32,000 bases of DNA from Acaryochloris marina MBIC11017 (GCF_000018105.1 NC_009925.1:6210001-6242000), one strand, 5' to 3'. Counted from the first letter of the stretch, positions 5,626 to 24,108 are shown. Notes: a model not told the origin generated them from the letters alone. A program made the numbers and translations.

Positions 5626-5756
5626 TGGTGGGCTAATTCCATAGCCAGTACATCTTAAACATGGCTCGAGGCTTCCCCCATCCTCAGTTTATTGGACACT
5701 ACATTACTGAAGTCCAGAAAACGCATTCTTCCAACAATAAATTAGACCTACTGTCT

Positions 5757-6977: not shown

Positions 6978-7205
6978 CTAACTCAAGTGGTTGAAATACC
7001 TTAGATACTGTCTAGATTGGTCTTCAACGATGTTATTGAAATGTCTATAGCTAAAAACTTTAGAGATTTGGATTTTGTAGGAGCTGTACAACTGCTCAAT
7101 CAGGCCATTCCAATCAACGCTCCTTTGCGCCTTAGCGTTATCACCCCGGCAGGTGGACCAACCCCAAGGGCTAATGTGATTAGCTAAGAGGTTGCTGTCT
7201 CTCGG
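6978..7205 (-). pseudogene. remnant of the C-terminus of an rve-type (IS3-like) transposase
   Basis: The minus-strand frame reads ...SPWGWSTCRGDNAKAQRSVDWNGLIEQLYSS...FSYRHFNNIVEDQSRQYLRYFNH*. This resembles the IS3 OrfB tail (...GNCWDNA.AESFF..LK.E....F.....A...I..YI.FYN). There is no start codon and a stop lies immediately upstream. Confidence 0.35.
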
Positions 7206-7903: not shown

Positions 7904-9268
7904 ATGATTGAATCTCGGTATAGTGGCCTTCCTCGGATGATTATGTGTGTTGGCCTTTTTGCGATCACCCTGGGAGGATGCGGTAGCAGTGATCAAGTGA
8001 ATCAGCCCCAGGCAATCGCGGTTAAATTAAGCACTGTCGAATCTGACACATTGGTTGACAGTAGTGAATTTATTGGTACATCGACGGCTCGTGATCGCGT
8101 CAGTCTGGCTCCCCGTATTGACGGCAGGATTTTGGAGATTTTTGTCAGGCAGGGCGATCGCGTCCGTCGAGGTGACAAGATTGTCCGCTTAGAACCCACC
8201 CGGGATCGCGAAAATGTGAACGCAGCTAGCCAAAGTGTCAACGTTGAGCGGGCACGATTAGGGCAAGCAGTGGCTGAACTAAGAACCGCCCAAGCTAATC
8301 GTGCTGCAGCTGCTGCTCAAGTCAAAAGTGCTAAGGCTGATCTCCAGACGATAGAGGCTGAAGTAGAGCTGGCCCAGATTAACCTGGACCGCACTAAAAA
8401 GCTGGTTAAGGATGGGGTGCTTCCCCAGCAGAACTTGGACGATTCGACACGAGATCTGAAAACAAATATTGCCCAGCGAAACTCTCGGCGGGAATCGCTG
8501 AATGCAGCAATTGAGTCCCAACAGGCAGCCGATCAGCAGGTTGATCAAGCCCAGGCTAATGTGGACAGCCAAAAAGCCGCGATTGCTCGATCTAAGGCTG
8601 AATTGAGAGCAGTAGGTCAGAACTTGGAGTTCAATACGATCCGTGCCCCAATTGATGGTGTGATTGGTAGCTTTGATAGCAAGAAAGTGGGAGATTATGT
8701 CAGCGTGGGGGAGCAACTGACGACACTGACCAATAATCAGACTCTTGAGCTTAATATTAATATCCCCATCGAAAATCGCGATCAGATAAAGCGGGGATTG
8801 GCGGTGGAAACGATTGGGAACAATGAGCGCCATATCGTTAGGGGACAGATAAACTATATAGCTCCCCTCGTTCAGCAAAATGCCCAATCGATTCTGACCA
8901 AGGCAACTTTCCCAAACCAACGTCGCCTTAGAGATCGCGAGTACGTGAGGGTTCGAGTGATTTGGAATGAAAGGCCTGGCATATTAATTCCTACCACTGC
9001 CATTTCCACCTTAGGTGGACAAAGCTTTGTCTATATTGCCCAAGAGCAAAGTACCCAATCTGGTGAGCGGTCGATGATGGTTCGACAGCAACCCGTCAAA
9101 CTAGGCAGAATTCAGGATCAAGCCTATCAAATACTGTCTGGTATCAAAGTTGGAGATCGCATTGCCACTTCCAATATTTTGAGCTTGAAAGACAATACGC
9201 CGATTACAGATGCAGAGACGGTCGGACGATTGGAATCCAAGATTCAGAAGACACAGGGGACTCATTAA
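7904..9268 (+). CDS. RND efflux periplasmic adaptor (membrane fusion protein, HlyD family)
   Basis: Lipoprotein-type signal (..FAITLGGCGSS), a long Q/A-rich coiled-coil hairpin and a C-terminal beta-barrel region. The stop overlaps the permease start (TAATG). Confidence 0.85.
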   Translation: MIESRYSGLPRMIMCVGLFAITLGGCGSSDQVNQPQAIAVKLSTVESDTLVDSSEFIGTSTARDRVSLAPRIDGRILEIFVRQGDRVRRGDKIVRLEPTRDRENVNAASQSVNVERARLGQAVAELRTAQANRAAAAAQVKSAKADLQTIEAEVELAQINLDRTKKLVKDGVLPQQNLDDSTRDLKTNIAQRNSRRESLNAAIESQQAADQQVDQAQANVDSQKAAIARSKAELRAVGQNLEFNTIRAPIDGVIGSFDSKKVGDYVSVGEQLTTLTNNQTLELNINIPIENRDQIKRGLAVETIGNNERHIVRGQINYIAPLVQQNAQSILTKATFPNQRRLRDREYVRVRVIWNERPGILIPTTAISTLGGQSFVYIAQEQSTQSGERSMMVRQQPVKLGRIQDQAYQILSGIKVGDRIATSNILSLKDNTPITDAETVGRLESKIQKTQGTH

Positions 9269-12200
9269 TGCTGCTGTCTGTCTCTAGCCCTTTTATTAAA
9301 CGCCCGGTATTAACAACGGTCTGCACCATTGTGATTGTGTTGTTGGGGGTCATTGCGATGGCCTTGTTGCCGCTCGATAAACTGCCCCAAATTGCTCCTA
9401 AACAGATTGCAGTTCGGGCCAACTATGTGGGAGTAGATGCTAAGACTGCAGTCGATAACGTCACCACCGTGCTGGAGCGAGAGATTAACGGTACTGAAGA
9501 TGTCAAGTGGATGACTTCAAGTACGGATAACACGGGCACTGCCACCATAAACGTTTCTTTTCCAGTGGAGAAAGATACCAATATTTCCCAGGTTCTGGTG
9601 CAAAATCGGGTCGCTCAAGCCCAGTCAGAACTCCCGCCTAGCGTTATCTCTACTGGAGTGACCACTGAGAAGGAATCGCCCAGCGTTACGCTGGTGTACT
9701 CACTCTATTCCGAGAAAGATGAGGCCGGAAGCTACTATTACAATCCCCAGTTTCTTTACAACTATTTGGATCGTTATCTGTGGAATGAACTCAAGCGAAT
9801 TGAAGGGGTAGGCAGTTTGAGAGCCTTCGGGGCTGCGGCATACTCCATGCGGCTATGGCTCGACCCCGATAAGCTGGCAGCTCGGGGATTGACTGCTGCT
9901 GATGTTGTTAACGCAGTTCAGACGCAGAACTTTGAAGTGGGGGCGGGTGGTGTGGGCCGACAACCCGGCCTCCCCCAGCAGCAATTTGAGTTGCCCTTAC
10001 GGGTCTTAGGGCGGTTCACCACCGTTGAGGAAGCTGAAAATATTGTGGTCCAGTCAGAGGCTGATGGCACACTGATCAAAGTCTTGGATGTGGGACGGGC
10101 CGAACTCGGAGTAGAGGACTATTTCTCCCAAGCTGTATTTGATGCTAAGGATCCGGCGGTTGGATTGATTGTCTACCAACTTCCCGGTACAAATGCCCTC
10201 AATACGGCTGAGCTGGTCAAAGCCAAGATGGCAGAGTTGTCAGCGGATTTCCCCCGAGGGTTGAAGGCTGAGATTGCCCATGACAATACACTATTTATTA
10301 ACGCGTCGCTGCGTGATCTATTAGTGACCCTAGCCCAGGCAATCGGGTTGGTCGTCCTGATTATTTTCATCTTTCTTCAGGACTGGCGAGCCACCTTAAT
10401 TCCGGCAGTGGCAATTCCAGTAGCACTAGTGGGGACCATGATTGCGCTGCTGGTCCTTGGCTTTACCCTCAACCAGTTGACGTTGTTTGCCTGCATCCTC
10501 GCCACGGGGTTAGTGGTAGATGATGGAATTGTGATCGTCGAGGCCGTATCGGCGAAGCTGTCCCAGGGGATGCGTCCCCGACAGGCTGCGCTTGACGCTA
10601 TGGACGAGTTAGTGGGAGCTGTGATTTCCACCTCTGTCGTCCTGATGGCCGTGTTTATCCCAGTCACGTTTTTCCCCGGAACAACCGGAATTGTGTATAA
10701 GCAGTTTGCCTTGACCATTGCCTTTGCCGTTGTCTTCTCCACTTTTAATGCTCTAACCTTTTCTCCCTCCATGTCTGGGGTCTTTCTACGACGGGCAGAA
10801 CCTGTAAAGGGGCCATTGGGTTGGTTGTTCCCCAGATTTAACCGTAGCTTTGCCTGGCTTAAGGATCACTATCGTCAGCTGATCGAGTTTTTCACCCGCA
10901 TCACACCTCTGATCATTGGCATCTTTGTCGCGGGCCTCGTGCTGACGGGCTGGATCTATCAAACCTTGCCGCAGGGATTTGTCCCGGAAGAGGACCAGGG
11001 CTATTTCTTCGTCATCATCGAAGGTCCGCCAGGGGTGTCATTGAACTACACCCACAACATCACCCAGCAGGCCGCTCAAATGATGATGGATTACGAGGAA
11101 GTGGAGCATACCATGGGGTTATCGGGCTTCTCCTTTGATGGTCTCAATAGTAATAAGGGCGTCATGTTCGTCAAGCTCCATCCCTGGAACAAGCGCCCCC
11201 AAGATTCCAGCTCTATTTTTGGTGTTTTGCAGCGAGCGAATCAGGATTTTCAGCAGCAGATTGATGGGGGGCGTGTGCTTGCGGTTAATGCACCTGCTGT
11301 TGATGGTCTCAGTAGCTTCGGCGGTTCAGAAATTTTTATTGAGGATCGTCAAGGACGTGGGATGGAGGCCTTGATTGCCAATACCCAACAGGTGATTACT
11401 GCGGCCAATCAACGGCCAGAGGTCGCCCTGGCCCTGACGACGTTTACCTTCGATAGCCCGATGCTGGAAGCGGAGATTGATCGTAACCGTGCGAATGCCC
11501 AAAACGTCAACGTCAGTGAAATTCTAAGTACGTTGCAAACCTATCTGGGGTCTAACTTTATTAACCAGTTTGTGCTGGATGGTCGTCTCTACCGCGTCTA
11601 TGCTCAAGCTGAGGCTGCCCGACGCCAAAGCCCAGAAGATATCGATAGTTTGTATGTGAGATCGCGAACGGGTACCCTTGTACAGCTCAGTAATCTGATC
11701 AATACACAGCAAATTTCTTATCCCCCCATTGTCAACAACTACAACGCTTATCCCGCGATTAAGGTCAACATCGCCCCAGCACCTGGCTATAGTTCAGGGC
11801 AGATTATTCAGGCCATGGAAGCAGTGGCTGAAGCCACCCTGCAGCCTGGTTTTGACTATGAGTGGACCAATACGGCTGCTGAGGAGAAAACGGCAGGTGG
11901 AGCCGCCCCAGTGGTATTTGGTCTCAGCTTTATCATGGTGTTTTTGGTTCTAGCGGCCCAGTACGAGAGCTATATCGATCCGCTCATTATCATGCTTTCT
12001 GTGCCCCTAGCGATTCTGGGTGCCCTGGGCGGCATTTGGTTTAGAGCCACCTTTTTACAGGCAGGCGGGGTGTGGCCCGTCCTCAATAACAATATTTACG
12101 CTCAGGTGGGTTTAGTGATGCTGATTGGAATGGCGAGTAAAAATGCCATTTTGATTGTGGAATTTGCCAACAAAAATCGCGACTTGGGCATGAAAATCCG

Positions 12201-12531
12201 GCAGGCCGCTATTTTTGCTTCAGAACAACGGTTTCGAGCGATTGTAATGACCGCGATTTCAACTCTAGCGGGGTTTATTCCATTAGTGATTGCCTCTGGC
12301 GCAGGGGCTGTCAGTCGCTGGTCCCTGGGAACTGCTGTTTTTGGTGGCATGTTGGTCGCCACCATCTTGAGTCTGATTTTCGTGCCCATTCTCTATATCG
12401 TGATTAAAAACCTAGAGGAAGACTTCCTCAAGGGAGGCCGAACCAACCAGAAAGATCCGCAAAGGCTGACCGAGAGGCAATCAGACGGCGGTGCTGAGGT
12501 TAGCAATATCCAAAGTCAATCGGGAGAGTAA
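9268..12531 (+). CDS. RND efflux permease (AcrB/HAE1 family)
   Basis: 1087 aa. N-terminus F I.RPVLTTV....V.LLG; 12-TM layout with two large periplasmic loops; conserved TM4 region (LATGLVVDDGIVIVE). Confidence 0.95.
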   Translation: MLLSVSSPFIKRPVLTTVCTIVIVLLGVIAMALLPLDKLPQIAPKQIAVRANYVGVDAKTAVDNVTTVLEREINGTEDVKWMTSSTDNTGTATINVSFPVEKDTNISQVLVQNRVAQAQSELPPSVISTGVTTEKESPSVTLVYSLYSEKDEAGSYYYNPQFLYNYLDRYLWNELKRIEGVGSLRAFGAAAYSMRLWLDPDKLAARGLTAADVVNAVQTQNFEVGAGGVGRQPGLPQQQFELPLRVLGRFTTVEEAENIVVQSEADGTLIKVLDVGRAELGVEDYFSQAVFDAKDPAVGLIVYQLPGTNALNTAELVKAKMAELSADFPRGLKAEIAHDNTLFINASLRDLLVTLAQAIGLVVLIIFIFLQDWRATLIPAVAIPVALVGTMIALLVLGFTLNQLTLFACILATGLVVDDGIVIVEAVSAKLSQGMRPRQAALDAMDELVGAVISTSVVLMAVFIPVTFFPGTTGIVYKQFALTIAFAVVFSTFNALTFSPSMSGVFLRRAEPVKGPLGWLFPRFNRSFAWLKDHYRQLIEFFTRITPLIIGIFVAGLVLTGWIYQTLPQGFVPEEDQGYFFVIIEGPPGVSLNYTHNITQQAAQMMMDYEEVEHTMGLSGFSFDGLNSNKGVMFVKLHPWNKRPQDSSSIFGVLQRANQDFQQQIDGGRVLAVNAPAVDGLSSFGGSEIFIEDRQGRGMEALIANTQQVITAANQRPEVALALTTFTFDSPMLEAEIDRNRANAQNVNVSEILSTLQTYLGSNFINQFVLDGRLYRVYAQAEAARRQSPEDIDSLYVRSRTGTLVQLSNLINTQQISYPPIVNNYNAYPAIKVNIAPAPGYSSGQIIQAMEAVAEATLQPGFDYEWTNTAAEEKTAGGAAPVVFGLSFIMVFLVLAAQYESYIDPLIIMLSVPLAILGALGGIWFRATFLQAGGVWPVLNNNIYAQVGLVMLIGMASKNAILIVEFANKNRDLGMKIRQAAIFASEQRFRAIVMTAISTLAGFIPLVIASGAGAVSRWSLGTAVFGGMLVATILSLIFVPILYIVIKNLEEDFLKGGRTNQKDPQRLTERQSDGGAEVSNIQSQSGE

Positions 12532-12533
12532 TC

Positions 12534-12626
12534 GTGTTTAAGGACTGGACGCTCAATGACTGGATGAACAATGGTTTATTTTTCGCCACGGTCATCATGC
12601 TGATCGGCTCATTTATTTTTGCCTAA
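12534..12626 (+). CDS. possible 30-aa single-TM micropeptide directly after the RND permease
   Basis: GTG at 12534, 3 nt after the permease stop, with GGGAGAG about 7 nt upstream. Product VFKDWTLNDWMNNGLFFATVIMLIGSFIFA. Below the ORF-track cut-off and translated by hand. Confidence 0.2.
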   Translation: MFKDWTLNDWMNNGLFFATVIMLIGSFIFA

Positions 12627-12642
12627 ACAGGTGGTATCAGAC

Positions 12643-12840
12643 ATGAATTTTAGGATGCTGATCTTTTCCGGTGTAATGACGGCGCTAGCAGGTGCAGTCC
12701 TAGGCATTGTCGTGGGTCATGTGAGTCCGATGCAATCTCGAAGACCCGTCATTTTTGTGGTGGGTTCAACCCTAGGATTTTTGATCGGTACAGGTTATGA
12801 AGCTGTTCAACAGTACAAGGATGAGGAGGTAGATGAGTAA
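12643..12840 (+). CDS. hypothetical small two-TM membrane protein (65 aa) with an acidic tail
   Basis: ATG at 12643 with AGGTGG about 10 nt upstream. Two hydrophobic helices and a C-terminal KDEEVDE. The TTG start at 12619 in the track is less likely. Confidence 0.45.
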   Translation: MNFRMLIFSGVMTALAGAVLGIVVGHVSPMQSRRPVIFVVGSTLGFLIGTGYEAVQQYKDEEVDE

Positions 12841-12932
12841 AGCAAGTTTTGACAGCGGCTCAGACCACACCACACGCTGGACCGCCTTTCCTATTAAAAG
12901 TTCTTCGTACCCTTTACACAACATCAAAAACT

Positions 12933-13739
12933 ATGGACCTTAAACTTCAAGGCAAACGCGCACTCGTTACCGGCAGCAGCAGCGGCATTGGAGCCGCGAT
13001 CGCAAAAACCCTCGCCTCTGAAGGTGCCTTTGTCGTTGTTAATGGACGCAATCAGGAACGGGCAAATCAGGTGATGAATGAGATTGTTCAAAATGGGGGG
13101 AAAGCAGCGGTGGCGATCGGCGATCTCTCGGCAGACGAACCTGCCAAACAAGTCGCTAAAGCTGCAGCTCAGGCATTTGATGGGATTGATATCCTCGTCA
13201 ACAATGCTGGTGGGGGTGGGGCGATCAACTGGTTTGATGCTACTGCTGAAGACTGGGCCAATACCTACCAGCAGAACGTCCTCTCGGCAGTCCGATTGAT
13301 TCAGCAGTTTGCACCCCAAATGAAAGCGGCTGGATGGGGTCGAATCATTAATATTTCCAGTGGTGTGGCCACTCAACCCACCGCCCAGATTGCTGACTAT
13401 GCCGCTGCAAAAGCTGCGATCGTCAATCTAACGGTCAGTTTGGCTAAGGAATTAGCCTATAGCGGCATTACGGTTAACACCCTCTCTCCCGGTACCATCC
13501 GCACCTCTGGTTTAGAGAAAGCTATACGCGGAATTGCCGCTGGGCAGGGCTGGGACACCGATGATTGGGCTGAACTCGAGAAGCGAACGGCTCGTGAAGT
13601 CTGGCCGAATCCAACCGGGCGTGTAGGACGAGTCGAAGATATTGCCAATATGGTGACTTATTTGGCGAGCCCGCTGGCAGACTTCATCAATGGTGCAGAC
13701 TATCGCGTTGATGGCGGCAATATTGGTTCAATTAATTAA
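12933..13739 (+). CDS. SDR-family NAD(P)-dependent oxidoreductase
   Basis: TGSSSGIG cofactor motif, NNAG, and a catalytic S...YAAAK. The start was moved to ATG 12933 (MDLKLQGKRALVTG...). Confidence 0.85.
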   Translation: MDLKLQGKRALVTGSSSGIGAAIAKTLASEGAFVVVNGRNQERANQVMNEIVQNGGKAAVAIGDLSADEPAKQVAKAAAQAFDGIDILVNNAGGGGAINWFDATAEDWANTYQQNVLSAVRLIQQFAPQMKAAGWGRIINISSGVATQPTAQIADYAAAKAAIVNLTVSLAKELAYSGITVNTLSPGTIRTSGLEKAIRGIAAGQGWDTDDWAELEKRTAREVWPNPTGRVGRVEDIANMVTYLASPLADFINGADYRVDGGNIGSIN

Positions 13740-13795
13740 TCGCCTAAACTACCCGCTGAAAAGGAAGAACAAAAATACTCAAACTGATAAAAGAG

Positions 13796-14473
13796 ATGAA
13801 AATTGGATTGATTGGGACGGGAAACATGTCTCGTTCTCTCGGCATTCTCTGGGCAGAGCAAGGCCATGAAATTTTTTGGGGATCACGCGATCCCAACAAG
13901 GCAAAGTCCGTCGCTGAGTTCGCAGGTCACAATACCCAAGGGGGCACCAACGACGAAGCGGCTGAGTTTGGTGAAGTAATCTTCTACTCGGTACGAGGCG
14001 TAATGCCGTCCACTGTTTTATCCTCCACGGATTGCTTGGCTGGCAAGATCATTCTTGACTGTAACAATCGTGATATCCCAGAAGGGTTTGCCTACGGTCC
14101 GTTGATGGCAGAGTCTTTGGCAGAAAAGCTAGCGGTGGATGTTCCCAACGCCCGCGTTGTTAAAGCCTTTAACACAATAGCCCAAGAGGTGTTTGAGCTA
14201 TCGCCTGAACCGCTTCAGGAACATCAGGTATCGGTCTATATCTGTGGTGACGATCTAGAAGCACGACAGACCACAATGACTTTAGCCAAAGATATTGGAT
14301 TTAATCCCATTGACTGTGGCCCCCTCCGCAGTGCCCGGATGTTGGAGGCTTTGGGTGACTTTATTCGCTTCATGATTGGCGGAATGGGGCTTGGTCCCTA
14401 TGCAACGATCTCCGTTAATGTCCTACCAGAGGCTTCTCAGCAGAGGCTGGGCAGACGGCAATCCGGCTCTTGA
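13796..14473 (+). CDS. NADPH-dependent F420-reductase-like / COG2085-type NAD(P)-binding oxidoreductase
   Basis: MKIGLIGTGNM Rossmann start, ~220-aa length, and conserved ..VVKAFN.. and ..V.VCGDD..A.. blocks shared with the paralog at 18305. Confidence 0.75.
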   Translation: MKIGLIGTGNMSRSLGILWAEQGHEIFWGSRDPNKAKSVAEFAGHNTQGGTNDEAAEFGEVIFYSVRGVMPSTVLSSTDCLAGKIILDCNNRDIPEGFAYGPLMAESLAEKLAVDVPNARVVKAFNTIAQEVFELSPEPLQEHQVSVYICGDDLEARQTTMTLAKDIGFNPIDCGPLRSARMLEALGDFIRFMIGGMGLGPYATISVNVLPEASQQRLGRRQSGS

Positions 14474-14569
14474 CCCATATATTTGAGGTTTACCGAAATG
14501 TCCAAAATCGATACGGTCATTGCCGCCTAGTTCAAGCGTAGAAATAGTTCACACAAATGAGGAAAAACG

Positions 14570-15313
14570 ATGAACGTAGATGTATTGCAACTCAAAGATA
14601 AAGTTGCATTGGTCACAGGAGGTTCTAGAGGCATTGGTAAAGCCATCGTTAAAGATTTAATGGAACAAGGAGCCGCAGTAGCCTTTACTTATGCCAACAG
14701 CACCGAAAAGGCGAAAGCCCTTGAAGGTGAGTTATCGAGTCTAGGCACGATTAAGGGCTATCAGTCTGATGCCTCTAATCTAGACAACATCAACCAGCTT
14801 ACCGATGCCATTGAGAAAGATTTTGGCAAAGTCGATATTCTGATTAACAACGCCGGACGATTTGTGAGCAAACCCTTTGATGAAGTCACCGAGGATGAGT
14901 TTGAACAGCTCTTTGCAACCAATGTCAAAGGCCCGTTTTTCCTAGTGCAAAAAATGGTGAGACTTATACCTGAAGGGGGCAGAGTCATTAATATCTCATC
15001 TGGCTCTACCCAACACTATGTACCCATGTCGAGTATCTACGCGGCTTCAAAAGGTGCCTTGGAGCAATTTACGAGAACGTGGGCCAGAGAACTCAGCGCT
15101 AAGAAAATTACGGTCAATAGCCTATTGCCGGGTTACACCGCAACAGACTGGGTGTCTGATACTCCTGAAGAACAGATGCAGTGGATGGCAGGCCAAGCGG
15201 CTCTCGGAGAACTCGGCACTGCAGAGGATATTTCACGCGCCGTTCTCTTTCTAGCCTCTGATTTAGGCCGATGGGTGACTGGACAGCAACTTAGTGTTGA
15301 TGGTGGTTTGTAG
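14570..15313 (+). CDS. SDR-family oxidoreductase (FabG-like)
   Basis: TGGSRGIG, NNAG and S..YAASK motifs; 247 aa. Confidence 0.9.
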   Translation: MNVDVLQLKDKVALVTGGSRGIGKAIVKDLMEQGAAVAFTYANSTEKAKALEGELSSLGTIKGYQSDASNLDNINQLTDAIEKDFGKVDILINNAGRFVSKPFDEVTEDEFEQLFATNVKGPFFLVQKMVRLIPEGGRVINISSGSTQHYVPMSSIYAASKGALEQFTRTWARELSAKKITVNSLLPGYTATDWVSDTPEEQMQWMAGQAALGELGTAEDISRAVLFLASDLGRWVTGQQLSVDGGL

Positions 15314-15378
15314 TGCGAGAGTGACAGACACCACAGACGAAGATGCAGTTGCTAATTGCGCCGATGTATGGACAGTTT

Positions 15379-15450
15379 GCGATGGTCTACGGCCAGCCTG
15401 CCTCCAGAGGAGGAGCTACGCTAACAGCCATCGCAGACATCAACCAGCGG
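15379..15450 (+). repeat. 72-nt intergenic repeat, copy 1 (GCGATGGTCTACGGCCAGCCTGCCTCCAGAGGAGGAGCTACGC...)
   Basis: Aligned by hand without gaps to 17449-17520; about 46 of the first 56 positions are identical. Contains a small CCTCC-AGA-GGAGG hairpin. Confidence 0.7.
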
Positions 15451-15518
15451 TCCAGCATGTTCAGGACAGAAAAGCCCGCTATTGAGCCGTCGTTAACCTA
15501 TAGGAGGGAAAGAACATC

Positions 15519-16403
15519 ATGCATAAACCAGTCATTCTAGTTCTAGGAACCACCGGGCAAACAGGCTCCAAAGTACTCGCACACCTTGATGAGGCTCCGG
15601 GCGATTACGCTATTCGCATCTGCTCACGACGACAGCAACAGGTTGATGAATGGACCAGTAGGGGCCGGGATGCTGTGCGCTTAGATCTCGATGATCCAGC
15701 AACATTTGGCCCTGCCCTCAACAGCGTTGATCGCATGTTTGTGATCAGCGGCTATACCGTCGATATGCTGTTCCAAATCAAAACCCTCGTGGATGCTGCC
15801 ATCAAGTGCGGCGTCAGTCATATCGTCCATCAGGGTGTCTTTGCCAACTGGGACACAACTGACCCCCACTTTATTTGGCATCAGCTTGTCGAGTCCTATA
15901 TCAAAGCCAGTGGAATAGCCTGGACCCATCTGCATCCCAACTACTTTATGGAAAATCTTTTGGGGCTAACCGCCTTGCAAAAGGGATCATTCCCAATGTT
16001 CGTCAACAACAAAGCAGTAGGCTGGATTGCGCTGGACGATGTTGCAGCAGTGGCCGTCCGGGTTCTCTGCGAAGGTCCACAGAAGCATAGCGGTAAAGAT
16101 TACTGGCTTAGTACTGATTCTCTGACGGGTGACCAAGCGGCTGAACTCCTCACGGATGTTTTAGGGCAGACAGTGGTATGTGACCATAAAACACCTGATG
16201 AGCTGGCCACCCTTATGCAGGGAGCAGGCGTTGAACCCAATTATGCAGCAGGCGTTGTTGATTTTATGCGACAGGTGATCGACGGTCGCATGGCCTATGT
16301 TGCAACTATTCGAGATGACGTTCCCTATGTAACCGGTCGCCCATCGATCTCTTTTCGGGAATGGTGCCAGCAAAAACGTGAAGCACTGCTGCAGGGTATT
16401 TAA
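15519..16403 (+). CDS. NmrA-family NAD(P)-binding protein (atypical SDR)
   Basis: N-terminal ILVLGTTGQTGSKV Rossmann motif; ~290 aa; NmrA/HSCARG-like layout. Confidence 0.8.
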   Translation: MHKPVILVLGTTGQTGSKVLAHLDEAPGDYAIRICSRRQQQVDEWTSRGRDAVRLDLDDPATFGPALNSVDRMFVISGYTVDMLFQIKTLVDAAIKCGVSHIVHQGVFANWDTTDPHFIWHQLVESYIKASGIAWTHLHPNYFMENLLGLTALQKGSFPMFVNNKAVGWIALDDVAAVAVRVLCEGPQKHSGKDYWLSTDSLTGDQAAELLTDVLGQTVVCDHKTPDELATLMQGAGVEPNYAAGVVDFMRQVIDGRMAYVATIRDDVPYVTGRPSISFREWCQQKREALLQGI

Positions 16404-16417
16404 GGAGTAAGAAGATA

Positions 16418-17434
16418 ATGCAACGAATTTTGATTATTGGCTCGACAGGCGCGATGGGTTCATCCGTTATCCGCGCACTGATTGCCGATCAATCACGAGA
16501 CTGTCATGTATTGGCGATGACGCGAAATCCTTCAAGCGATCAGGCTAAACAGCTTGTGGAACTGGATAAGCAACGCATTGAGTTAGTCAAAGGCGATCTG
16601 GATGATGAGCAAAGCGTAGAAGCTGCGATGAAGGATGTCGATGCTGTCTTTTGCAATACTGCATTCTTCGCATCAGGTAGCGTTGACGGTGAGCGAGCCC
16701 ATGCTCACGGGGCCATTAACGCAGCTCGCCGAGCCGGTGTCGATCACTTTGTTTATGCATCACTGGATCCGGCCAGTCGCTTATCCGGCGGTCAGTGTTG
16801 TGTACCGCACTACGACGCCAAGGCATCCGTTGAAGCGGATATTGACTACCACCGTTCTGATGAGTTTATGCGACAGATTGAGGATGGCTGGTTCAGCAAT
16901 CACGTCAGCGTGTTGGTGACCTGTCCGTATATCGAAAACTTCTATGACTTCTTTACACCTGATGATGGAGAATTGCCAGACGGTCGTCTAGGTAAGATCT
17001 TTCGCGGTCCTATCGTAGGCGATGGGATTTGGCAGATGGTTGCGTTGGCGGATCTCGGCTATTTCGCCCGTATGATGTTGTGCGATGGCCGAAGGCCGGT
17101 CGTAGACCATCGCAAAACTTGGGGCGGACGAACCCTCCGCATCGCATCTGAGGAAGCCACCTTACCTGAGATTGTCCAAACTTTTGAAGCGGTTACGGGC
17201 ATTCCTGCGGCCTACCAGCCGATGACGGAACAGGAGTTTCTTGATTCTGGTTTACCCAATGCCCACGATCCCCTCAACAACATGCTGATGTATCGTGACG
17301 GCTTCTTTGAGCGGCGGGACTTTGATGAGCTGCGGACGTTACATCCGGGGCTCAGATCATTTCGCCAGTGGCTACAGGAAACAGGCTGGCGGGGTGAAGC
17401 ACGAAGTATGCGTAAGAATCCGGCAACTGGCTGA
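16418..17434 (+). CDS. NmrA-like NAD(P)-binding protein (atypical SDR)
   Basis: N-terminal ILIIGSTGAMGSSV. Only a 14-nt gap separates it from the preceding NmrA gene. Confidence 0.8.
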   Translation: MQRILIIGSTGAMGSSVIRALIADQSRDCHVLAMTRNPSSDQAKQLVELDKQRIELVKGDLDDEQSVEAAMKDVDAVFCNTAFFASGSVDGERAHAHGAINAARRAGVDHFVYASLDPASRLSGGQCCVPHYDAKASVEADIDYHRSDEFMRQIEDGWFSNHVSVLVTCPYIENFYDFFTPDDGELPDGRLGKIFRGPIVGDGIWQMVALADLGYFARMMLCDGRRPVVDHRKTWGGRTLRIASEEATLPEIVQTFEAVTGIPAAYQPMTEQEFLDSGLPNAHDPLNNMLMYRDGFFERRDFDELRTLHPGLRSFRQWLQETGWRGEARSMRKNPATG

Positions 17435-17448
17435 ATGAACATGGGGTT

Positions 17449-17520
17449 GCCATGGTCTATGGCTGGCCTGCCTCAAGAAGAGGAGCTACGCAAATGGCTA
17501 TCGCGCCTATCAACCCAGCT
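17449..17520 (+). repeat. 72-nt intergenic repeat, copy 2
   Basis: Direct-orientation copy of 15379-15450, starting 15 nt after the stop of the second NmrA gene. Confidence 0.7.
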
Positions 17521-17581
17521 ATTGGCCACCTTCGGAATGGCCTGATAGATGTTTTCAGAAACTTAGTTTGAGTACGTCCGT

Positions 17582-18265
17582 ATGAACAGTAGGAAAGAAA
17601 CAGTTGTGGTGGTAGGTGCTAGTCGTGGGATTGGTGCTTCCGTTACACAGCACTTCCACAACAATGGGCACAAAGTATTCGCGGTGTCACGCACTCAGGC
17701 AAAGGTTAATAGTTGGATCAAAGCAGACATTTCTCAACCGAGTGGAATCCAAGCTGTTGGAGATGCGATAGGAACTGAAACGTTAGATGCTCTACTGTTT
17801 ATGGGAGGCGTTTGGGAGACGGATGCTTTTACTCAGAACTATAACTTTACAGAGAGTTCTGATGCTGAAACCCGTTTTGTGATCGGCGTTAATACGATCG
17901 CACCCATTGAAATCACTCGCATACTCTCCGATAACCTGTTGCAAGCCGCTAATCCCAGAGCAATTTATATCGGTTCTTTATCAGGACTAGATAACCGAGC
18001 CTCAGCGGAGGTTGCCAACACAGCCTCAAAGTTTGGTTTGCGGGGCGCTGTCCAGGCACTCAGAATTGCGTTTGACCGCAAGATAGGCTTCACCGTTATC
18101 AATCCTGGCAACGTAGCAACGGAAGAAGTTCTGTCAGATATTCAAGAGGGTCGATTCCCACCTCAAAAAGTAATACCGATTTCAGACTTGATTCACAGTG
18201 TCGAGTGGCTATTAAGCCTATCACCACTCGTTGACGTTCAAGATCTCAACCTACAGCAGCGATAA
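17582..18265 (+). CDS. divergent short SDR-family protein in which the catalytic Tyr position reads Asn
   Basis: VVGASRGIG cofactor motif. The expected YxxxK is NTASK (N146 at 18017-18019, K150 at 18029-18031). Confidence 0.8.
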   Translation: MNSRKETVVVVGASRGIGASVTQHFHNNGHKVFAVSRTQAKVNSWIKADISQPSGIQAVGDAIGTETLDALLFMGGVWETDAFTQNYNFTESSDAETRFVIGVNTIAPIEITRILSDNLLQAANPRAIYIGSLSGLDNRASAEVANTASKFGLRGAVQALRIAFDRKIGFTVINPGNVATEEVLSDIQEGRFPPQKVIPISDLIHSVEWLLSLSPLVDVQDLNLQQR

Positions 18266-18304
18266 AAGTATCAGCAGAATATTTCTGGAGAACAAGGAGC
18301 AAGT

Positions 18305-18934
18305 ATGAAGATTGGCATCGTTGGGTCAGGCAATATCGGCGGCACACTGGGACGCCACTGGGCAGGTGTGGGGCATCAGGTGATGTTCAGCTCTCGCCAT
18401 CCCGAAACACTGCAGCCGATGGCGGATGCGGTCAATGCCCAAACCGGCACCGTTGAGGAAGCGACCAAGTTTGGAGATGTGATCTTGCTGGCGATTCCCT
18501 TTGGCAAAGTGCCGGACGTAGCTCAGCAGGTTGGGACACTTGACGGCAAGGTTTTGATTGATGCAGGGAATCCCTATCCCCAACGGGACGGTGCGGTTGC
18601 CCAGCAAGTGATCGATGATCCATCTCAGACAGCGACTGGCTATGTTTCTGCTCAGTTTTCAGGTGCGAAGACTATCAAGGCATTCAATTCGATCTACTTC
18701 AAGGTGCTGGAAGAGCAAGCATTCCAATCTGAAGATGCTCGCATCGCAGTACAGGTCTGTGGTGATGACGAACAGGCCAAAGCAACCGTTACGCAGCTTA
18801 TTGAGGAAATTGGCCTTGCTCCGCAAGATATAGGAGTTTTAGCCGATGGCATCTTGTTTGAGCCTGGGGCACCCCTCTATAACAAGAACCTGCCTATCTC
18901 TGAAGCTAAAGCCATTTTGCAACAGCTTCGGTAA
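18305..18934 (+). CDS. NADPH-dependent F420-reductase-like / COG2085-type NAD(P)-binding oxidoreductase (paralog of 13796)
   Basis: MKIGIVGSGNIGG Rossmann start, plus ..TIKAFN.. and ..VQVCGDDEQAK.. blocks. Confidence 0.75.
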   Translation: MKIGIVGSGNIGGTLGRHWAGVGHQVMFSSRHPETLQPMADAVNAQTGTVEEATKFGDVILLAIPFGKVPDVAQQVGTLDGKVLIDAGNPYPQRDGAVAQQVIDDPSQTATGYVSAQFSGAKTIKAFNSIYFKVLEEQAFQSEDARIAVQVCGDDEQAKATVTQLIEEIGLAPQDIGVLADGILFEPGAPLYNKNLPISEAKAILQQLR

Positions 18935-19046: not shown

Positions 19047-20480
19047 GTGTTGATCATGATCGAACTTCCAGTTTTACCTTTACCCTCACAGTGGCCTCCA
19101 TCCGTTGTCTTGGCGGTAGTGGAATCAGACGAAAGCTTTACCAAAGCGGTCACGGCGTCTTTGCTAGTGACGGCAGGTCTGGTTTTCCTCCTCAGTGTCC
19201 TCCTCGGAGAACTCTGCACCCGGCTGAAGCTCCCCTCGGTGTTGGGCGACTTAGCCACTGGCATGATTCTAGGGGGCTCTGTTCTAAGTATTCTGGTCTT
19301 TGCAGAGGTTGATCAGGTCGCCAATGGTTCAATACTTCATCTGCTTGAACTGGCGACCGGTGCGCCACCCGATACGGTGATGAATGCCTATCAGTTTCAG
19401 ATGGGGGAATTCATCAATAACAGCGCCACCATTGGCTTGCTGACCCTTCTGTTTGTCACTGGATTAGAATCCGATCTAGAAGAGTTAATTCGCGTGGGTC
19501 CCCAGGCCGTTGCCGTGGCGATGACGGGCGTTTTTCTACCGCTGATCGGGGGTGCGATCGCACTCATCTACATCTTCCATGTCCCCACGATTCCTGCCAT
19601 TTTTGCCGGAGCAGCCCTGACTGCTACCAGTATCGGCATTACCGCCAATGTCTTACAGGAAATTGGCCATTTACAATCTGATGAAGGGCAAGTGATTCTT
19701 GGGGCCGCTATTCTCGACGATATTCTCGGAATCGTGGTCCTGGCCCTGACCCTGAGTCTTGTGGAAACAGGTTCTATTGAGCCGTCAAGTTTGATCCTGC
19801 TCGTGATCAATGCTGCCGTGTTTGTGCTGTTGGCGGTTCTGCTCAATCGCTATTTCTGCCCTGTGTTTACGAAGAATATTGAGCGATTTGATAACCCGGC
19901 TGCGTTACTGCTTTGCTCCTTTGCCTTTTTGAATATTTTGGCATTACTTGCGATCTCATTCGGCCTCGAAGCTCTCTTAGGCGCTTTCGCTGCAGGACTG
20001 GTTTTAGGCGGTACCAGTCAGAGGGAAAAACTGATGCGATTGGTGCAGCCCTTCGTGTTCGTTTACACGACCATTTTCTTTGTCACCATTGGCGCTAGCG
20101 TCAATCTGAACGTTCTGAATCCACTGGTGCCAGAAAACCGAGAGGGGCTGGTGATTGCTGCCTGTCTGATTGCGATTGCCGTAATCGGCAAGGTTATCGC
20201 GGGATTTACCATCCTTGGAGATAAACCGATTAACCGACTGGCCGTGGGTATAGGTATGATTCCTCGGGGAGAAGTAGGCTTGGTGTTTGCGGGGCTCGGA
20301 GCGTCCACTGGAGTTCTATCTGAGTCCCAGGATGCGGCGGTATTGATTATGGTCGTAGTCACAACGTTGATAGCGCCGCTCCTGTTGCGATGGGTCTTCC
20401 CGTCTCAACCCGAAATCTTAACGGCAGACACTGCCAAACGCTTTGCAGAAATAGAGGAAGCGGTAGGAGGAAAATTTTAA
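19047..20480 (+). CDS. cation:proton antiporter (Na+/H+ exchanger family, CPA2-like)
   Basis: 477-aa polytopic membrane protein with GLE.DL and IPRGEVGLVFA motifs typical of Kef/NapA-type exchangers. The start may be GTG 19047 or ATG 19056. Confidence 0.85.
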   Translation: MLIMIELPVLPLPSQWPPSVVLAVVESDESFTKAVTASLLVTAGLVFLLSVLLGELCTRLKLPSVLGDLATGMILGGSVLSILVFAEVDQVANGSILHLLELATGAPPDTVMNAYQFQMGEFINNSATIGLLTLLFVTGLESDLEELIRVGPQAVAVAMTGVFLPLIGGAIALIYIFHVPTIPAIFAGAALTATSIGITANVLQEIGHLQSDEGQVILGAAILDDILGIVVLALTLSLVETGSIEPSSLILLVINAAVFVLLAVLLNRYFCPVFTKNIERFDNPAALLLCSFAFLNILALLAISFGLEALLGAFAAGLVLGGTSQREKLMRLVQPFVFVYTTIFFVTIGASVNLNVLNPLVPENREGLVIAACLIAIAVIGKVIAGFTILGDKPINRLAVGIGMIPRGEVGLVFAGLGASTGVLSESQDAAVLIMVVVTTLIAPLLLRWVFPSQPEILTADTAKRFAEIEEAVGGKF

Positions 20481-20520: not shown

Positions 20521-21144
20521 ATGAATGACGCTGAAAATGCCTTAAGTGAACAGCTTGCTGCGATTCAAGCTCAACTTCAGCAACTCGGAACCCAGCTCAA
20601 TGAACTCCAGGCAAAGGTTTCACCCCTGCAGCAGTTATCTAAGCAAGTGACTAAAATTGAGCAACGTTTATTGGCTGTCGGCGATCTCTATCGTTATCAA
20701 CAGCTTCAAGACCACCTGGCCGCCCACCGTTGGTATGAGGCTGATCAAGAGACGATTCAACTCATACAAGAAATTGAAGGCGTGACAAATCTAGAACAGC
20801 TCACTCCCGATGACATTCGTACATTTCCCTGTGGTCAACTTCAAGTCCTGGATCAACTCTGGCAAAGTTATAGCGAAGAGAAGTTTGGTTTTAGTGTACA
20901 GGTCCGTATTTATCAAGAGGTGGGTGGTACATTTGACACGACGATCGCCCAGGATCAAAAACTAGTGGAGCAATGGGGAGAGCGCCTCGGCTGGCGAGAG
21001 GGCGATCGCTGGCGGAAATGCAGCGAACTGGATTTTTCTTTAGAGGCACCCTTGGGCTGCCATCCTTCTGGCTGGTGGAATTCGCCCTATGGGTCCAAAA
21101 TGACCAATTACTTTTTGGGGCGATTATTAATTTGTGAGCTTTAG
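20521..21144 (+). CDS. GUN4-domain protein with an N-terminal coiled coil
   Basis: Y..L...L....W.EADQET......E.........L...DI..FPC..L..LDQLW..YS..KFGFSVQ..IY is the GUN4-domain signature. Confidence 0.75.
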   Translation: MNDAENALSEQLAAIQAQLQQLGTQLNELQAKVSPLQQLSKQVTKIEQRLLAVGDLYRYQQLQDHLAAHRWYEADQETIQLIQEIEGVTNLEQLTPDDIRTFPCGQLQVLDQLWQSYSEEKFGFSVQVRIYQEVGGTFDTTIAQDQKLVEQWGERLGWREGDRWRKCSELDFSLEAPLGCHPSGWWNSPYGSKMTNYFLGRLLICEL

Positions 21145-21220: not shown

Positions 21221-21628
21221 ATGGACTTTCGATATATCTACACTCGACTCAATGTAGCGAACTTTCACGCCTGCAAAGCGTTTTACCGAGACATTATGGG
21301 ACTTCCGGTCAAGTTTGAAGATGATAGGGATGAATATGTCGAATTTGATGCCAACTCGATTCGGCTTACCCTATTCAATCGCCAAAACCTGGATAATTTT
21401 ATTCCCAAGGAAGAATCGCTCAGTTTTGATGTTCACAATGCTCAGATTGTGCTGTCATTCCAGGTCAGTAATTTGGAAGAGGCGACTACTCATCTCAAGA
21501 ATCACCAGGTAGAGCTGTTAGCCCCTCCTACCAGCTATCCGGATCGAGGATTTCTGTCCACCTGCTTTCGAGATCCAGACGGGAATTTGATTGAAATAGA
21601 GCAGATGACTGATGTACTCATTTCATAA
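21221..21628 (+). CDS. VOC-family (glyoxalase/bleomycin-resistance fold) protein
   Basis: 135 aa with an N-terminal ..I.L.V.N......FY.D..GL motif and a C-terminal F.DPDGN.IEI motif. Confidence 0.8.
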   Translation: MDFRYIYTRLNVANFHACKAFYRDIMGLPVKFEDDRDEYVEFDANSIRLTLFNRQNLDNFIPKEESLSFDVHNAQIVLSFQVSNLEEATTHLKNHQVELLAPPTSYPDRGFLSTCFRDPDGNLIEIEQMTDVLIS

Positions 21629-21812: not shown

Positions 21813-22631
21813 TTATTTGGACTGGGATTTTTGAGGTGGAGACTGAGTTTGAGCCGTTCTCTGAGTCGCTGATTTGCGCCGATAACTATCGGCTTGAATT
21901 TTGATAATCAAGCCATGATGAATTAAGCGATCAATGGCAGCCACCGCCATCATCGAATCAGTGAAAATGTCATCCCATTGGCTGAAGGGTTGATTCGCTG
22001 TAATCAACAAACTTTTTCGTTCATAGCGATGCGCAATTAATTCAAACAGAACGGACGTTTCCGCTTCCGACTTTTTGCAATAGCCCAAGTCATCCAAGAC
22101 CAACAGATCATAGCGGTCCAGTTTTTTGAGCATTGGATGCAGCTGCAGTTGGAGCTTCGCCTGTTGCAAGTGTTGAACCAATGCGTTGGCTGCAAAGAAC
22201 TTCACCCGCTTACCGAATTCCAGCATCTTTTTGGACACTCCAGTGGCCAGATGTGTTTTTCCAACGCCCGAGGGTCCCAAAATAAGGCAGTTCTCGGCGC
22301 GCTCCAACCAACCCGGATCTGCGGCTAATTGCATCAAGGGAGCAGGATTGAGCTGGGGACAATGGCTAAAGTCAAAGTTGGTAAAACTTTTTGCGTTTGG
22401 GAGCCTGGCTTCGGTGAGAGCACGTTTTAGGCGAGCTTGTTCTCTTCTTTGGGCCTCCGTTTCGCACAAGGCTAGTAAGAATTCCGCATAGGACCAGTTT
22501 TCCTGCATGGCTTGGGATTCGATAGATTCCCAATGGGTCAACATGTGGGAGAGCCTGAGCTTTTTTAAATAGAGGCTCAGGTGCTGGTAGGGGCTCAGCG
22601 GGGACTGAGCAGGAGGGGAGGAGTTTGTCAT
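21813..22631 (-). CDS. istB: IS21-family helper ATPase IstB
   Basis: Walker A LILGPSGVGKTHLA, Walker B LLVLDDLGY, and IstB-type N- and C-termini. The start is ATG 22631 (MTNSS...) or 22655. Confidence 0.9.
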   Translation of the reverse strand: MTNSSPPAQSPLSPYQHLSLYLKKLRLSHMLTHWESIESQAMQENWSYAEFLLALCETEAQRREQARLKRALTEARLPNAKSFTNFDFSHCPQLNPAPLMQLAADPGWLERAENCLILGPSGVGKTHLATGVSKKMLEFGKRVKFFAANALVQHLQQAKLQLQLHPMLKKLDRYDLLVLDDLGYCKKSEAETSVLFELIAHRYERKSLLITANQPFSQWDDIFTDSMMAVAAIDRLIHHGLIIKIQADSYRRKSATQRTAQTQSPPQKSQSK

Positions 22632-24108
22632 AAAGTTCAAGTGAATGTTGTTCAATGCTGAGGTCAGGAACCTGCTTCATCTGAGGCGGCTCAAACTGTT
22701 TTTTCAGGCGATTGAGGGTAAGGCTGGATGAGCGAAGCTGCTGCTGTAAGTACACTGCTACGGCCTGTTCTTTATCTTGAACCGCAGCAATATACAGGGC
22801 TTCCACGATGATCTTGGCAGCCTGCTCCAGGTCAAATTGGGCTTTGAGCTGTTCCCAGATTTGGCGGTATTCAGGATTGGGAAGTAGGTCTGATTGCCAG
22901 GTGCAATAGATAAAAGCACGAGGCTTCAATCGCATTGAACCAATAACATGGCGATAGTTGATGCAACGGTCGCGACGTTTGCCTTTGCCACTGACACGCT
23001 TCCTCGGCAATTCCACGACTGGGTGTCGCTCTAGATAGCCGACAATCCGGTCGTGGTATAGATGCAGTTCCAATTGACGGCCAATTAGCCGAGAAGGAAC
23101 GGTGTATAGAATGCAACGAACATCAATGGTGCTGCGTTTACTGACTTTAGCGGTAAGCACTTCATAGTCAGGGGTTCGATATTTGGGCAAGGGTTGCAGA
23201 TGCTCTTTTTCTTGCTCATACTTGGCCTGGCACTGTTGATTCAACTTGGCAACCTGGGCATCAATCAAAGCTTGATACTCACCAACACTCGTAAAATCTG
23301 CACTGCCGCGCAGATAGATCGCCTGCTTAATTCGGTTTTTGAGATGGCCATGGGGAGATTCAATGGAGCCATTCTCATGGGCTACACCTTTGTTGTTACG
23401 AGTGGGTTCTAGCCGATAGTGGTCACACAGTTCGTCGTACAAACGCGTGAGGTTTTTGGACCGGCGGCCGCCCATGTTGCGATAGGCTGCACTCAAACTA
23501 TCAGTACGATGCTGTGTAGGAACACCTCCACAGGCTGCAAAGGCATTTTGCAATCCTTCTGAGAGGGCAACAAAGCTTTCGCCTCCTTGGATGATCTGGG
23601 CATATCGCCAGCCGCTATATCCCAGACGGTAATGGTATATCAGGTGCTCAAAGGGTTTGCCGGCAATGGTAATCGTGATGCCTTTGAGTTCTGTAAAATC
23701 GGAGAACCCTTGTACCCCGGGTTCATGACGCAATTCAAACATCACTTCAGGGCTTGGTCCATGTAAGGCTTTCCACGTTCTCACCCGACGTTGTAGGGTC
23801 CGCAGGACTTGGGGATACTGGCCTGGATACTTATCCTGCAGGTACTCATACAGGGTCATGGGTTTGAGGCGTGGGTCTCGACGCAGCATTGGTTCTAGCT
23901 CGTCTTCCCACACATCAGCTAAGGGGTCGGGAACGGTGCGTTGGTCCTGAAGGCGGCCGCGATTAGGTTGATGGGTGCCGGCCTCAATTCGTTGTCCGGT
24001 TCTTGTAGATATTTCGGCAATGTAAGCTGCTTCAGCTTGTTTCAAGCCGAGGTCTCTTCCGTTCATATAAACACGAGTATGATAGGAATCAATTCTTTTG
24101 TTAGGCAC
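22372..24108 (-). CDS. istA: IS21-family transposase IstA (open frame continues ~81 codons past the usual end, into istB)
   Basis: N-terminal HTH, a DDE core (..HRTDSLSAA.., ..HENGSIES..) and an IstA-type C-terminal region ending ..LELYDKLL. The low-complexity tail beyond that overlaps istB. Confidence 0.9.
   Translation of the reverse strand: MPNKRIDSYHTRVYMNGRDLGLKQAEAAYIAEISTRTGQRIEAGTHQPNRGRLQDQRTVPDPLADVWEDELEPMLRRDPRLKPMTLYEYLQDKYPGQYPQVLRTLQRRVRTWKALHGPSPEVMFELRHEPGVQGFSDFTELKGITITIAGKPFEHLIYHYRLGYSGWRYAQIIQGGESFVALSEGLQNAFAACGGVPTQHRTDSLSAAYRNMGGRRSKNLTRLYDELCDHYRLEPTRNNKGVAHENGSIESPHGHLKNRIKQAIYLRGSADFTSVGEYQALIDAQVAKLNQQCQAKYEQEKEHLQPLPKYRTPDYEVLTAKVSKRSTIDVRCILYTVPSRLIGRQLELHLYHDRIVGYLERHPVVELPRKRVSGKGKRRDRCINYRHVIGSMRLKPRAFIYCTWQSDLLPNPEYRQIWEQLKAQFDLEQAAKIIVEALYIAAVQDKEQAVAVYLQQQLRSSSLTLNRLKKQFEPPQMKQVPDLSIEQHSLELYDKLLPSCSVPAEPLPAPEPLFKKAQALPHVDPLGIYRIPSHAGKLVLCGILTSLVRNGGPKKRTSSPKTCSHRSQAPKRKKFYQL

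Follow-up and report, generated by a model that had tools for sequence, protein, structure and literature searches.

What would a cyanobacterium gain from seven consecutive genes for NAD(P)-binding, Rossmann-fold reductases placed behind a multidrug efflux pump? The question is raised by a stretch of 32,000 nucleotides from Acaryochloris marina MBIC11017 (GCF_000018105.1 NC_009925.1:6210001-6242000), which we analysed at its full length and call the window; all coordinates count from its first letter. Positions 12933-18934 of the window carry the seven open reading frames (ORFs) in question, AM1_6141 to AM1_6147, all on the + strand and here named G1 to G7. A preliminary description of this DNA had taken them, together with the resistance-nodulation-division (RND) pump upstream, for a dedicated island of reduction and export. 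With moderate confidence we favour the reading that the locus is induced to reduce and expel aromatic compounds of a redox-active or electrophilic kind, as a LysR/AraC-linked defence locus behind a pump of the HAE1 type. The island idea stands as far as the pump type and the linkage of LysR, RND and NmrA genes are concerned, the latter recurring elsewhere, and falls where it treats the seven genes as one co-conserved unit: they are a strain-variable patchwork and not a conserved system, and their link to the pump is dispensable in a sister strain.

The run of seven reductase-like genes on one strand with short gaps was borne out, as every ORF was recovered and its family agreed with Pfam; the public annotation of identical DNA matches our calls for G1 to G7. 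The intergenic gaps measure 56, 96, 205, 14, 147 and 39 bp in turn. The window is identical to DNA of strain MBIC10699 (AP026075.1, ~3.03 Mb), and the corresponding proteins of MBIC11017 are AM1_6136-6147. AM1_6141-6147 found no main-text mention in the literature, and a paper on the oxygen response offered category tables only. The families follow one another as short-chain dehydrogenase/reductase (SDR), Npd-like, SDR, NmrA, NmrA, Tyr-less SDR and Npd-like, so the nearly mirror-symmetric order remarked on before holds at the level of families. It does not reflect ancestry: paralogues share 32 % (G1/G3), 32 % (G2/G7) and 23 % (G4/G5) identity, and G6 can barely be aligned to G1 or G3. With identities of at most 32 %, a tandem or inverted duplication was ruled out and the symmetry is a coincidence of families.

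G1 (AM1_6141, 12933-13739, +; Pfam adh_short, 1e-51) and G3 (AM1_6143, 14570-15313, +; adh_short_C2, 1e-61, and adh_short, 1e-54) are classical SDRs with complete motifs, namely TGSSSGIG, NNAG and YAAAK in G1 and TGGSRGIG, NNAG and YAASK in G3, the latter forming a module with G2. The nearest plasmid homologues of G1 come from Sphingobium and Streptomyces (50-54 % identity). G6 (AM1_6146, 17582-18265, +; adh_short, 7e-20) is a divergent SDR without the catalytic Tyr, as the preliminary description had rightly seen. Its residues 146-150 read NTASK, aligned to the YaaSK of 3E9N, 2NM0 and 5MLN with N146 in the place of the Tyr, and the Asn, within the stretch EVANTA(S/A)K, does not vary among 16 orthologues from several cyanobacterial orders (alignment A2). 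The cofactor-binding motif is kept and NNAG has become FMGG. The G6 family comprises more than 800 homologues, sharing 62-74 % identity across cyanobacterial orders.

The two Npd-like genes, G2 (AM1_6142, 13796-14473, +; PF03807 F420_oxidored, 7e-17) and G7 (AM1_6147, 18305-18934, +; PF03807, 3e-19), encode Fno/STEAP-like NADP-binding proteins. Like Fno/NpdG and the N-terminal domains of STEAP proteins, they combine the Rossmann fold of PF03807 with an NADP-type Ser-Arg after strand 2. The closest solved structures are STEAP3 (9e-21) and Tfu-FNO (3e-20) for G2 and 4HUJ (3e-18) for G7, the matches of the two proteins to STEAP3/4 being similar in strength to those to Fno. Earlier doubt about a role with F420 proved well founded, since G2 and G7 score 83.1 and 58.7 bits, far under the cutoff of 149.8 for the NpdG/Fno equivalog TIGR01915. 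In passages of a review (PMC8498797), cyanobacteria are mentioned for FO-using photolyases and are not among the bacterial groups that those passages list for Fno; FO is a possible substrate of G2 and G7. Members of the G2 family occur across cyanobacteria at 65-75 % identity, and relatives of G7 are plasmid-borne in Pantoea, Rhizobium, Agrobacterium and Ralstonia, a further difference from Fno/NpdG.

The centre of the array is formed by G4 (AM1_6144, 15519-16403, +; NmrA, 3e-24), an atypical SDR of the NmrA family, and G5 (AM1_6145, 16418-17434, +; NmrA, 3e-37), a protein of the NmrA/HSCARG type. Both belong to PF05368, scoring 86.7 and 129.2 bits against a gathering cutoff of 27, both carry a GxxGxxG-type motif (GTTGQTG in G4, GSTGAMG in G5) and both are devoid of YxxxK; in G5, H131, D133 and K135 are invariant in an alignment with 17 homologues (alignment A1). 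The best structural match of G5 is KstA11 (5F5L/5F5N), which aligns end to end at 1.4e-30, with HSCARG weaker at 7e-20, and the best matches of G4 are SimC7 (1.5e-19), triphenylmethane reductase and E. coli YtfG/QOR2. The crystal structure of KstA11 contains NAD+ together with a 1,4-dihydroxy-anthracycline as substrate (PMC10108166), and with KstA10 the enzyme constitutes an NmrA-like reductase pair that reduces and dearomatises anthracyclinones (PMC10108166, PMC11101304). The likeness to KstA11/KstA10, ActVA-ORF4 and SimC7 thus lies in two adjacent NmrA-family genes and in the end-to-end matches of G5 to KstA11 and of G4 to SimC7, and the known substrates of these enzymes are polycyclic quinones and ketones. 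The window differs in that no polyketide cluster is present, that G5-type proteins carry a family-specific insertion of ~23 residues (~143-165) absent from KstA11, and that identity to the known enzymes is partial; activity on such compounds is a prediction. The preliminary description had suggested that the two NmrA-like proteins may be cofactor sensors. Since the solved structures that match them best belong to active NAD(P)H enzymes, we favour instead a catalytic role for G4 and G5, putatively on quinone-like or polycyclic aromatic carbonyls, over pure cofactor sensing; G6 may be either an enzyme or a sensor.

The pump consists of a periplasmic adaptor of the membrane fusion protein (MFP) family (AM1_6138, 7904-9268, +; HlyD_3/HlyD_D23; TIGR01730, 204 bits against a cutoff of 94.9) and an RND permease (AM1_6139, 9268-12531, +; ACR_tran, 1.5e-299), which scores 1072 bits against the cutoff of 940 for TIGR00915 and is by this profile a multidrug transporter of the hydrophobe/amphiphile (HAE1) type. 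The array was said to lie directly downstream of it; the pump is indeed upstream, and the 401-bp gap between the permease gene and G1 accommodates an ORF for a 65-aa hydrophobic membrane protein (AM1_6140, 12643-12840, +) that is present in public annotations, matched no family and is kept beside LysR in a sister strain without the pump. Divergent from pump and array lies the LysR-family gene AM1_6136 (5757-6707, -; Pfam HTH_1 and LysR_substrate), with a strong promoter-like site on the - strand at 6750-6723; from this arrangement it is a candidate regulator of pump and array alike. An AraC-family gene (4714-5625, +; Pfam HTH_18/HTH_AraC) may control the G2-G3 module, to judge by the place of its homologue in Acaryochloris 'Moss Beach'.

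Put together, these features suggest an Acaryochloris-specific defence locus, assembled from independently conserved NADPH-reductase modules, G1, G2-G3, G4-G5, G6 and G7. An aromatic compound that is redox-active or electrophilic, for instance a quinone, a polycyclic ketone, a dye or an aldehyde, would be sensed by the divergent LysR protein, perhaps together with the AraC protein encoded upstream, whereupon transcription would run from the LysR-proximal control region through the MFP and RND genes and the small membrane ORF into G1-G7. In the cytoplasm, the soluble enzymes, putatively including G6, G2 and G7, would use NADPH for the reduction of quinone or carbonyl groups, while the pump would expel the parent compounds or their products. 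A MATE exporter (2289-3656), a Dps-like ferritin (3971-4471, -) and a VOC/glyoxalase-fold protein (21221-21628, +) are encoded near the HAE1 pump, and we count them in favour of such a defence role. Of the context given earlier, the RND pump with its adaptor, the LysR and AraC regulators and Dps were confirmed, whereas the VOC gene is parted from the array by the genes of a CPA2 antiporter (AM1_6148, 19047-20480, +; Pfam) and a GUN4-like protein (20521-21144, +; Pfam). These three downstream genes, the VOC gene likewise assigned by Pfam, are probably context outside the reductase unit.

Support from other organisms comes from a neighbourhood test anchored on G5, for which 80 loci were fetched from species-representative genomes. 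The closest 16 G5-type loci belong to cyanobacteria, Planctomycetes, Alpha- and Gammaproteobacteria, and in 15 of them a second NmrA gene stands beside the G5-type gene. A Pfam census of their 134 neighbouring ORFs returned 15 NmrA, at least 8 LysR and 5 RND permease genes, as well as 4 zinc-dependent alcohol dehydrogenases (Zn-ADH), 4 AraC, 4 TetR and 3 SDR genes. The LysR genes (at least 8) are often divergent, and an RND permease gene lies within 5 kb of the G5-type gene in 5/16 loci. In a Waterburya metagenome-assembled genome (MAG), the RND gene is directly upstream of the NmrA pair, with MFP and RND proteins 59 % and 78 % identical to those of the window; in a Planctomycetaceae MAG it is likewise upstream, with one TetR gene in between. 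The linkage of LysR, RND pump and NmrA-type reductase therefore recurs in other phyla. The canonical NmrA partners constitute an orthologous family of their own with 41-89 % mutual identity, whose best structural matches are, as for G4, SimC7, triphenylmethane reductase and QOR2/YtfG. Calothrix NIES-4105 combines TetR and LysR genes with a G5-like gene, NmrA, a PRISE-type SDR, a Mo-hydroxylase, a G7-like gene (71 %), NmrA and SDR. For G1 and G7, the neighbourhoods sampled were plasmid records and one Calothrix locus only. A metagenome scan anchored on the pump yielded one locus (JAAUYG010284249.1, locus positions 1283-11261), on a contig ending 300 bp past the RND gene, in which MFP (71 %) and RND (79 %) are preceded, at a distance of ~3 kb, by genes for CPA2 (70 %) and a GUN4-like protein (52 %); CPA2, GUN4, MFP and RND are hence neighbours even without an intervening reductase array.

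Within the genus, the closest comparison is offered by a 9.9-kb contig of a sister strain (L094), 91-94 % identical to the window at the nucleotide level. The gene order on it is LysR, then a small ORF, SnoaL, G3, G4, G5, G6 and G7, followed by TetR and an FAD mono-oxygenase. The order of G3-G7 is kept together with LysR at 91 % nucleotide identity (blastn), and the G3-G7 core with its LysR is thus a conserved unit within the genus. The divergent control region at 6708-6816 is common to both strains (L094 570-1703 corresponds to window 5672-6816, 94 % identity, blastn). The window has an additional 5.85-kb segment (6808-12663, +; blastn), made up of an AT-rich stretch, MFP and RND, which parts the small ORF from the LysR control region. 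At its two ends are 9-bp direct repeats of the form ATGCTKATC at 6808-6816 and 12655-12663 (ATGCTTATC and ATGCTGATC), of which the sister strain has one copy and no segment, a pattern that fits deletion (or insertion) by recombination between short repeats. G1-G2 occupy the place that SnoaL has in the sister strain, and the downstream genes differ too (blastn), the contig still carrying ~200 bp of CPA2 from its 5' end. Because of this remnant and the single repeat copy, the sister strain probably arose from a window-like arrangement by deletions. A remnant of SnoaL between G2 and G3 was ruled out, as tblastn returned nothing and the shared sequence is the upstream spacer of G3 alone.

More distant relatives carry other assortments. 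In Acaryochloris 'Moss Beach' (CP071717.1, locus positions 3543-13927), an AraC gene 50 % identical to that of the window is divergent from a reductase row made up of G2-like (81 %), G3-like (83 %), an aldo-keto reductase (AKR), G2-like (84 %), SnoaL, G3-like (86 %) and SDR genes, after which katG and fur follow. G2-G3 are collinear with positions 4884-6420 of this locus at 75 % nucleotide identity. The katG and fur neighbours hint that the array is connected with genes of oxidative stress. The G2-G3 module is duplicated there, and 48 bp upstream of the second G2 copy match G1 at its 3' end. A. thomasi (PQWO01000006.1) has LysR beside a G5 orthologue (82 %), SnoaL, a canonical partner and a Zn-ADH, and lacks both a pump and an Npd gene. 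Upstream of that G5 orthologue, at locus positions 2108-9571, MerR-CMD-AKR and TetR-SDR-SDR-methyltransferase groups make up a dense patch of detoxification-type modules. The window accordingly unites four or more pieces that are each conserved on their own, the AraC-associated G2-G3, the NmrA pair, G6 and G7, and reductase arrays of varying membership recur, as in Calothrix and 'Moss Beach'.

From the adaptor gene (start at 7904) to the VOC gene (end at 21628), coding is on the + strand throughout. Terminator-like sites within the array number 12, against 15.9 expected from shuffled sequences; they are weak and none is a convincing intrinsic terminator. Published RNA-seq of MBIC11017 lists log2(WL/FR) values of +0.41 for AM1_6138, +0.59 for AM1_6140, +0.39 for AM1_6141, +0.41 for AM1_6143 and +0.36 for AM1_6147 (PMC11633204 Table S2). 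Adaptor, small ORF, G1, G3 and G7 are thus shifted in the same direction and to nearly the same extent, being higher in high white light (PMC11633204), and AM1_6148, the CPA2 gene, is not in the list of differentially expressed genes (PMC11633204). As weak evidence, the shift shared by these five genes fits one transcription unit.

Several findings weigh against a single inducible locus for reduction and export. The expression shifts are tiny (1.3-1.5 fold), and 5 of the 10 genes passed the filter of that study (PMC11633204). The co-occurrence of all seven families, proposed earlier as a check, failed: none of the 80 G5-anchored loci contains the seven-gene array, and only G3-G7 in the sister strain, G2-G3 in 'Moss Beach' and NmrA pairs recur. 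Co-occurrence with RND genes fared better, given the five loci described above, and is broken by the sister strain and by the A. thomasi locus; the missing pump in the sister strain means that pump and reductases are not obligately linked. No gene for an outer-membrane factor was found in the 32-kb window, and such a factor may be encoded elsewhere. G4 falls outside the canonical partner family (29-36 % identity), and the LysR of the window, with 32-41 % identity, was ruled out as an orthologue of the LysR proteins beside canonical NmrA pairs. Orthologues of G6 in Leptolyngbya and Gloeocapsopsis and of G2 in Chroococcidiopsis and Nostoc are solitary genes in unrelated contexts, and G6, devoid of the Tyr of YxxxK, is no classical SDR.

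The main rival, which we regard as rather unlikely, is that unrelated reductase genes accumulated through insertion, deletion and recombination in a flexible region rich in mobile elements and form no functional unit, each gene or module having its own role and promoter. The mosaic origin of every module speaks for such accretion, as do the differences between strains of the genus in the pump, in G1-G2 versus SnoaL and in the downstream genes. The 9-bp repeats at the pump segment, palindromic elements in two spacers and in G5, and IS21-like genes and an IS630-like element (28005-29005) further downstream point the same way, while the high conservation (62-75 %) of the G6 and G2 families as single genes elsewhere suggests roles of their own. 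Yet it is very unlikely that, without selection for clustering, seven genes on one strand would all come from three cofactor families that are related. A run of this kind by chance is not plausible, with about 5e-6 expected if 5 % of ~6000 genes were of this type, an estimate that uses assumed frequencies and not a genome count. Accretion also sits poorly with the comparable regulator-linked arrays of Calothrix and 'Moss Beach', with the order of G3-G7 and LysR preserved at 91 % nucleotide identity and with five genes shifting expression in one direction by one amount.

A dedicated sequential pathway for one class of polycyclic aromatic or quinone natural product, such as an anthraquinone or naphthoquinone from a host or neighbour, appears distinctly unlikely to us; it would proceed by reduction, dearomatisation and renewed reduction in the manner of KstA11/KstA10, with the pump handling substrate or product. 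It would draw on the end-to-end match of G5 to KstA11 (1.4e-30), whose structure holds NAD+ and an anthracycline (PMC10108166), on the NmrA-like nature of the KstA11/KstA10 pair (PMC11101304), on the match of G4 to the angucyclinone ketoreductase SimC7 and on the SnoaL-like genes, of polyketide-cyclase fold, in equivalent arrays of three Acaryochloris relatives. What tells against it is the composition of the locus: as stated before, no scaffold enzyme is present, the scan of ORFs of at least 80 aa in the 32-kb window having found no polyketide synthase (PKS), non-ribosomal peptide synthetase (NRPS), P450 or terpene synthase-type enzyme, and the locus is for this reason no biosynthetic gene cluster. 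Array membership furthermore varies between close strains, the G5 insertion of ~23 residues is absent from KstA11 and residue identity to it is partial, and proteins of the SnoaL fold are very widespread. We consider it very unlikely that some among G4, G5 and G6 are non-catalytic NAD(P)(H) sensors that modulate regulators or pump by redox state in the manner of NmrA/HSCARG (NMRAL1). With HSCARG, they would have in common membership of PF05368, the GxxGxxG motif and the absence of YxxxK in G4 and G5, the HxDxK motif and overall similarity (7e-20) in G5, and G6 might be added because an Asn invariably replaces its catalytic Tyr whereas its cofactor-binding motifs are retained. However, enzyme homologues of G4 and G5 score higher than HSCARG, and SimC7, the best match of G4, is said to be an active ketoreductase despite an absent canonical SDR triad. 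The known sensors of this group moreover come from eukaryotes and have transcription factors or signalling proteins as their binding partners, whereas the genes of the window stand amid enzymes, a pump and bacterial regulators.

The preferred reading, a defence locus of reduction and export, places the window among known kinds of systems, and nothing in the locus falls outside them, regulator-linked efflux with reductases being a familiar design. Pumps of the MexT type and the LexR pump have a functional tie to NAD(P)H oxidoreductases and to stress by electrophiles and redox-active compounds. MexT-MexS-MexEF-OprN of Pseudomonas aeruginosa and LexR-LexABC of Lysobacter resemble the window in that a LysR gene is divergent from an RND pump (PMC2794183, PMC10269722). 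The window differs by its seven reductase genes in cis downstream of the pump, by the absence of a gene for an outer-membrane factor, by its cyanobacterial host and by a pump-reductase linkage that a sister strain does without; its LysR is no orthologue of MexT, the best NCBIfam matches being of the BsrA/LeuO type and all under cutoff. In Bacillus subtilis, the MhqR and YodB regulons provide several NAD(P)H reductases and glyoxalase/VOC-fold dioxygenases for the detoxification of quinones and electrophiles. Unlike in the window, the regulators there are of the MarR/DUF24 type, the enzymes are azoreductases and nitroreductases, and no RND pump takes part. A bolder extension, by analogy with KstA11 and one we hold to be doubtful, is that a G5-type, HSCARG/KstA11-like NmrA protein and a second NmrA reductase constitute a widespread module for the detoxification of quinones or polycyclic aromatics by tandem reduction or dearomatisation, of which A. 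marina would have an expanded version that recruited G6, G2 and G7. The two-NmrA arrangement itself, in cyanobacteria, Planctomycetes, Alpha- and Gammaproteobacteria, usually comes with a divergent LysR gene and often with an RND pump nearby.

The window also contains repeats and mobile elements. The AT-rich stretch inside the pump segment covers 1.1 kb at 6817-7903 (GC ~0.38; 0.377 at 7001-8000) and has no gene called; no ORF of at least 80 aa and no Rfam match were found in it, and it could represent decayed mobile DNA or else an extended leader. A 69-nt hairpin-forming direct repeat (D4) has its first copy in the G3-G4 spacer (15377-15445, +; -32.6 kcal/mol, z = -3.4) and its second, 80 % identical to the first, in the G5-G6 spacer (17447-17515, +). 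The copies flank G4-G5, the element ends in GCGATGG...CCATCGC, and the two hairpins could be processing sites; an Rfam scan of the whole window returned no family at threshold. Kin to these spacer repeats (D6/I1) is a 24-nt in-frame palindromic insertion in G5 (17085-17108, +), which splits a HIP1 site (GCGATCGC), adds eight residues (CDGRRPVV) and is absent from 17/17 homologues (alignment A1) and from the sister strain. A further site listed for the GCGATGG...CCATCGC element lies at 26477-26511, and a regular-expression count of this palindrome in other loci is confounded by the common HIP1 motif. Downstream, an IS21-like pair (21813-24108, -) encodes an IstB ATPase and a transposase with a Mu-type C-terminal domain in overlapping ORFs, which one public annotation gives as a single fused gene, and an IS630-like element with HTH and DDE_3 ORFs (27998-29082) is framed by 28-nt inverted repeats (27998-28025, 29055-29082). 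Three families of 31-44-nt direct repeats at 26012-27921, with 3-5 copies each, 70-87 % identical and irregularly spaced, surround ORFs that have no Pfam match (25704-25970, 27084-27626).

The locus changes no general concept, and what stands out in it is the two-NmrA module, widespread and uncharacterised, along with the G6 and G2/G7 families, to which no function has been assigned. Acaryochloris marina is a chlorophyll-d cyanobacterium that lives in biofilms on algae and ascidians. If the preferred reading is true, the locus would be a compact natural test bed for how such an organism copes with redox-active metabolites, and it would offer handles on three families without a function, the G5-type NmrA protein with its partner, the Tyr-to-Asn SDR with its more than 800 members and the Fno-like proteins, such as G2 and G7, of organisms presumed to lack F420.

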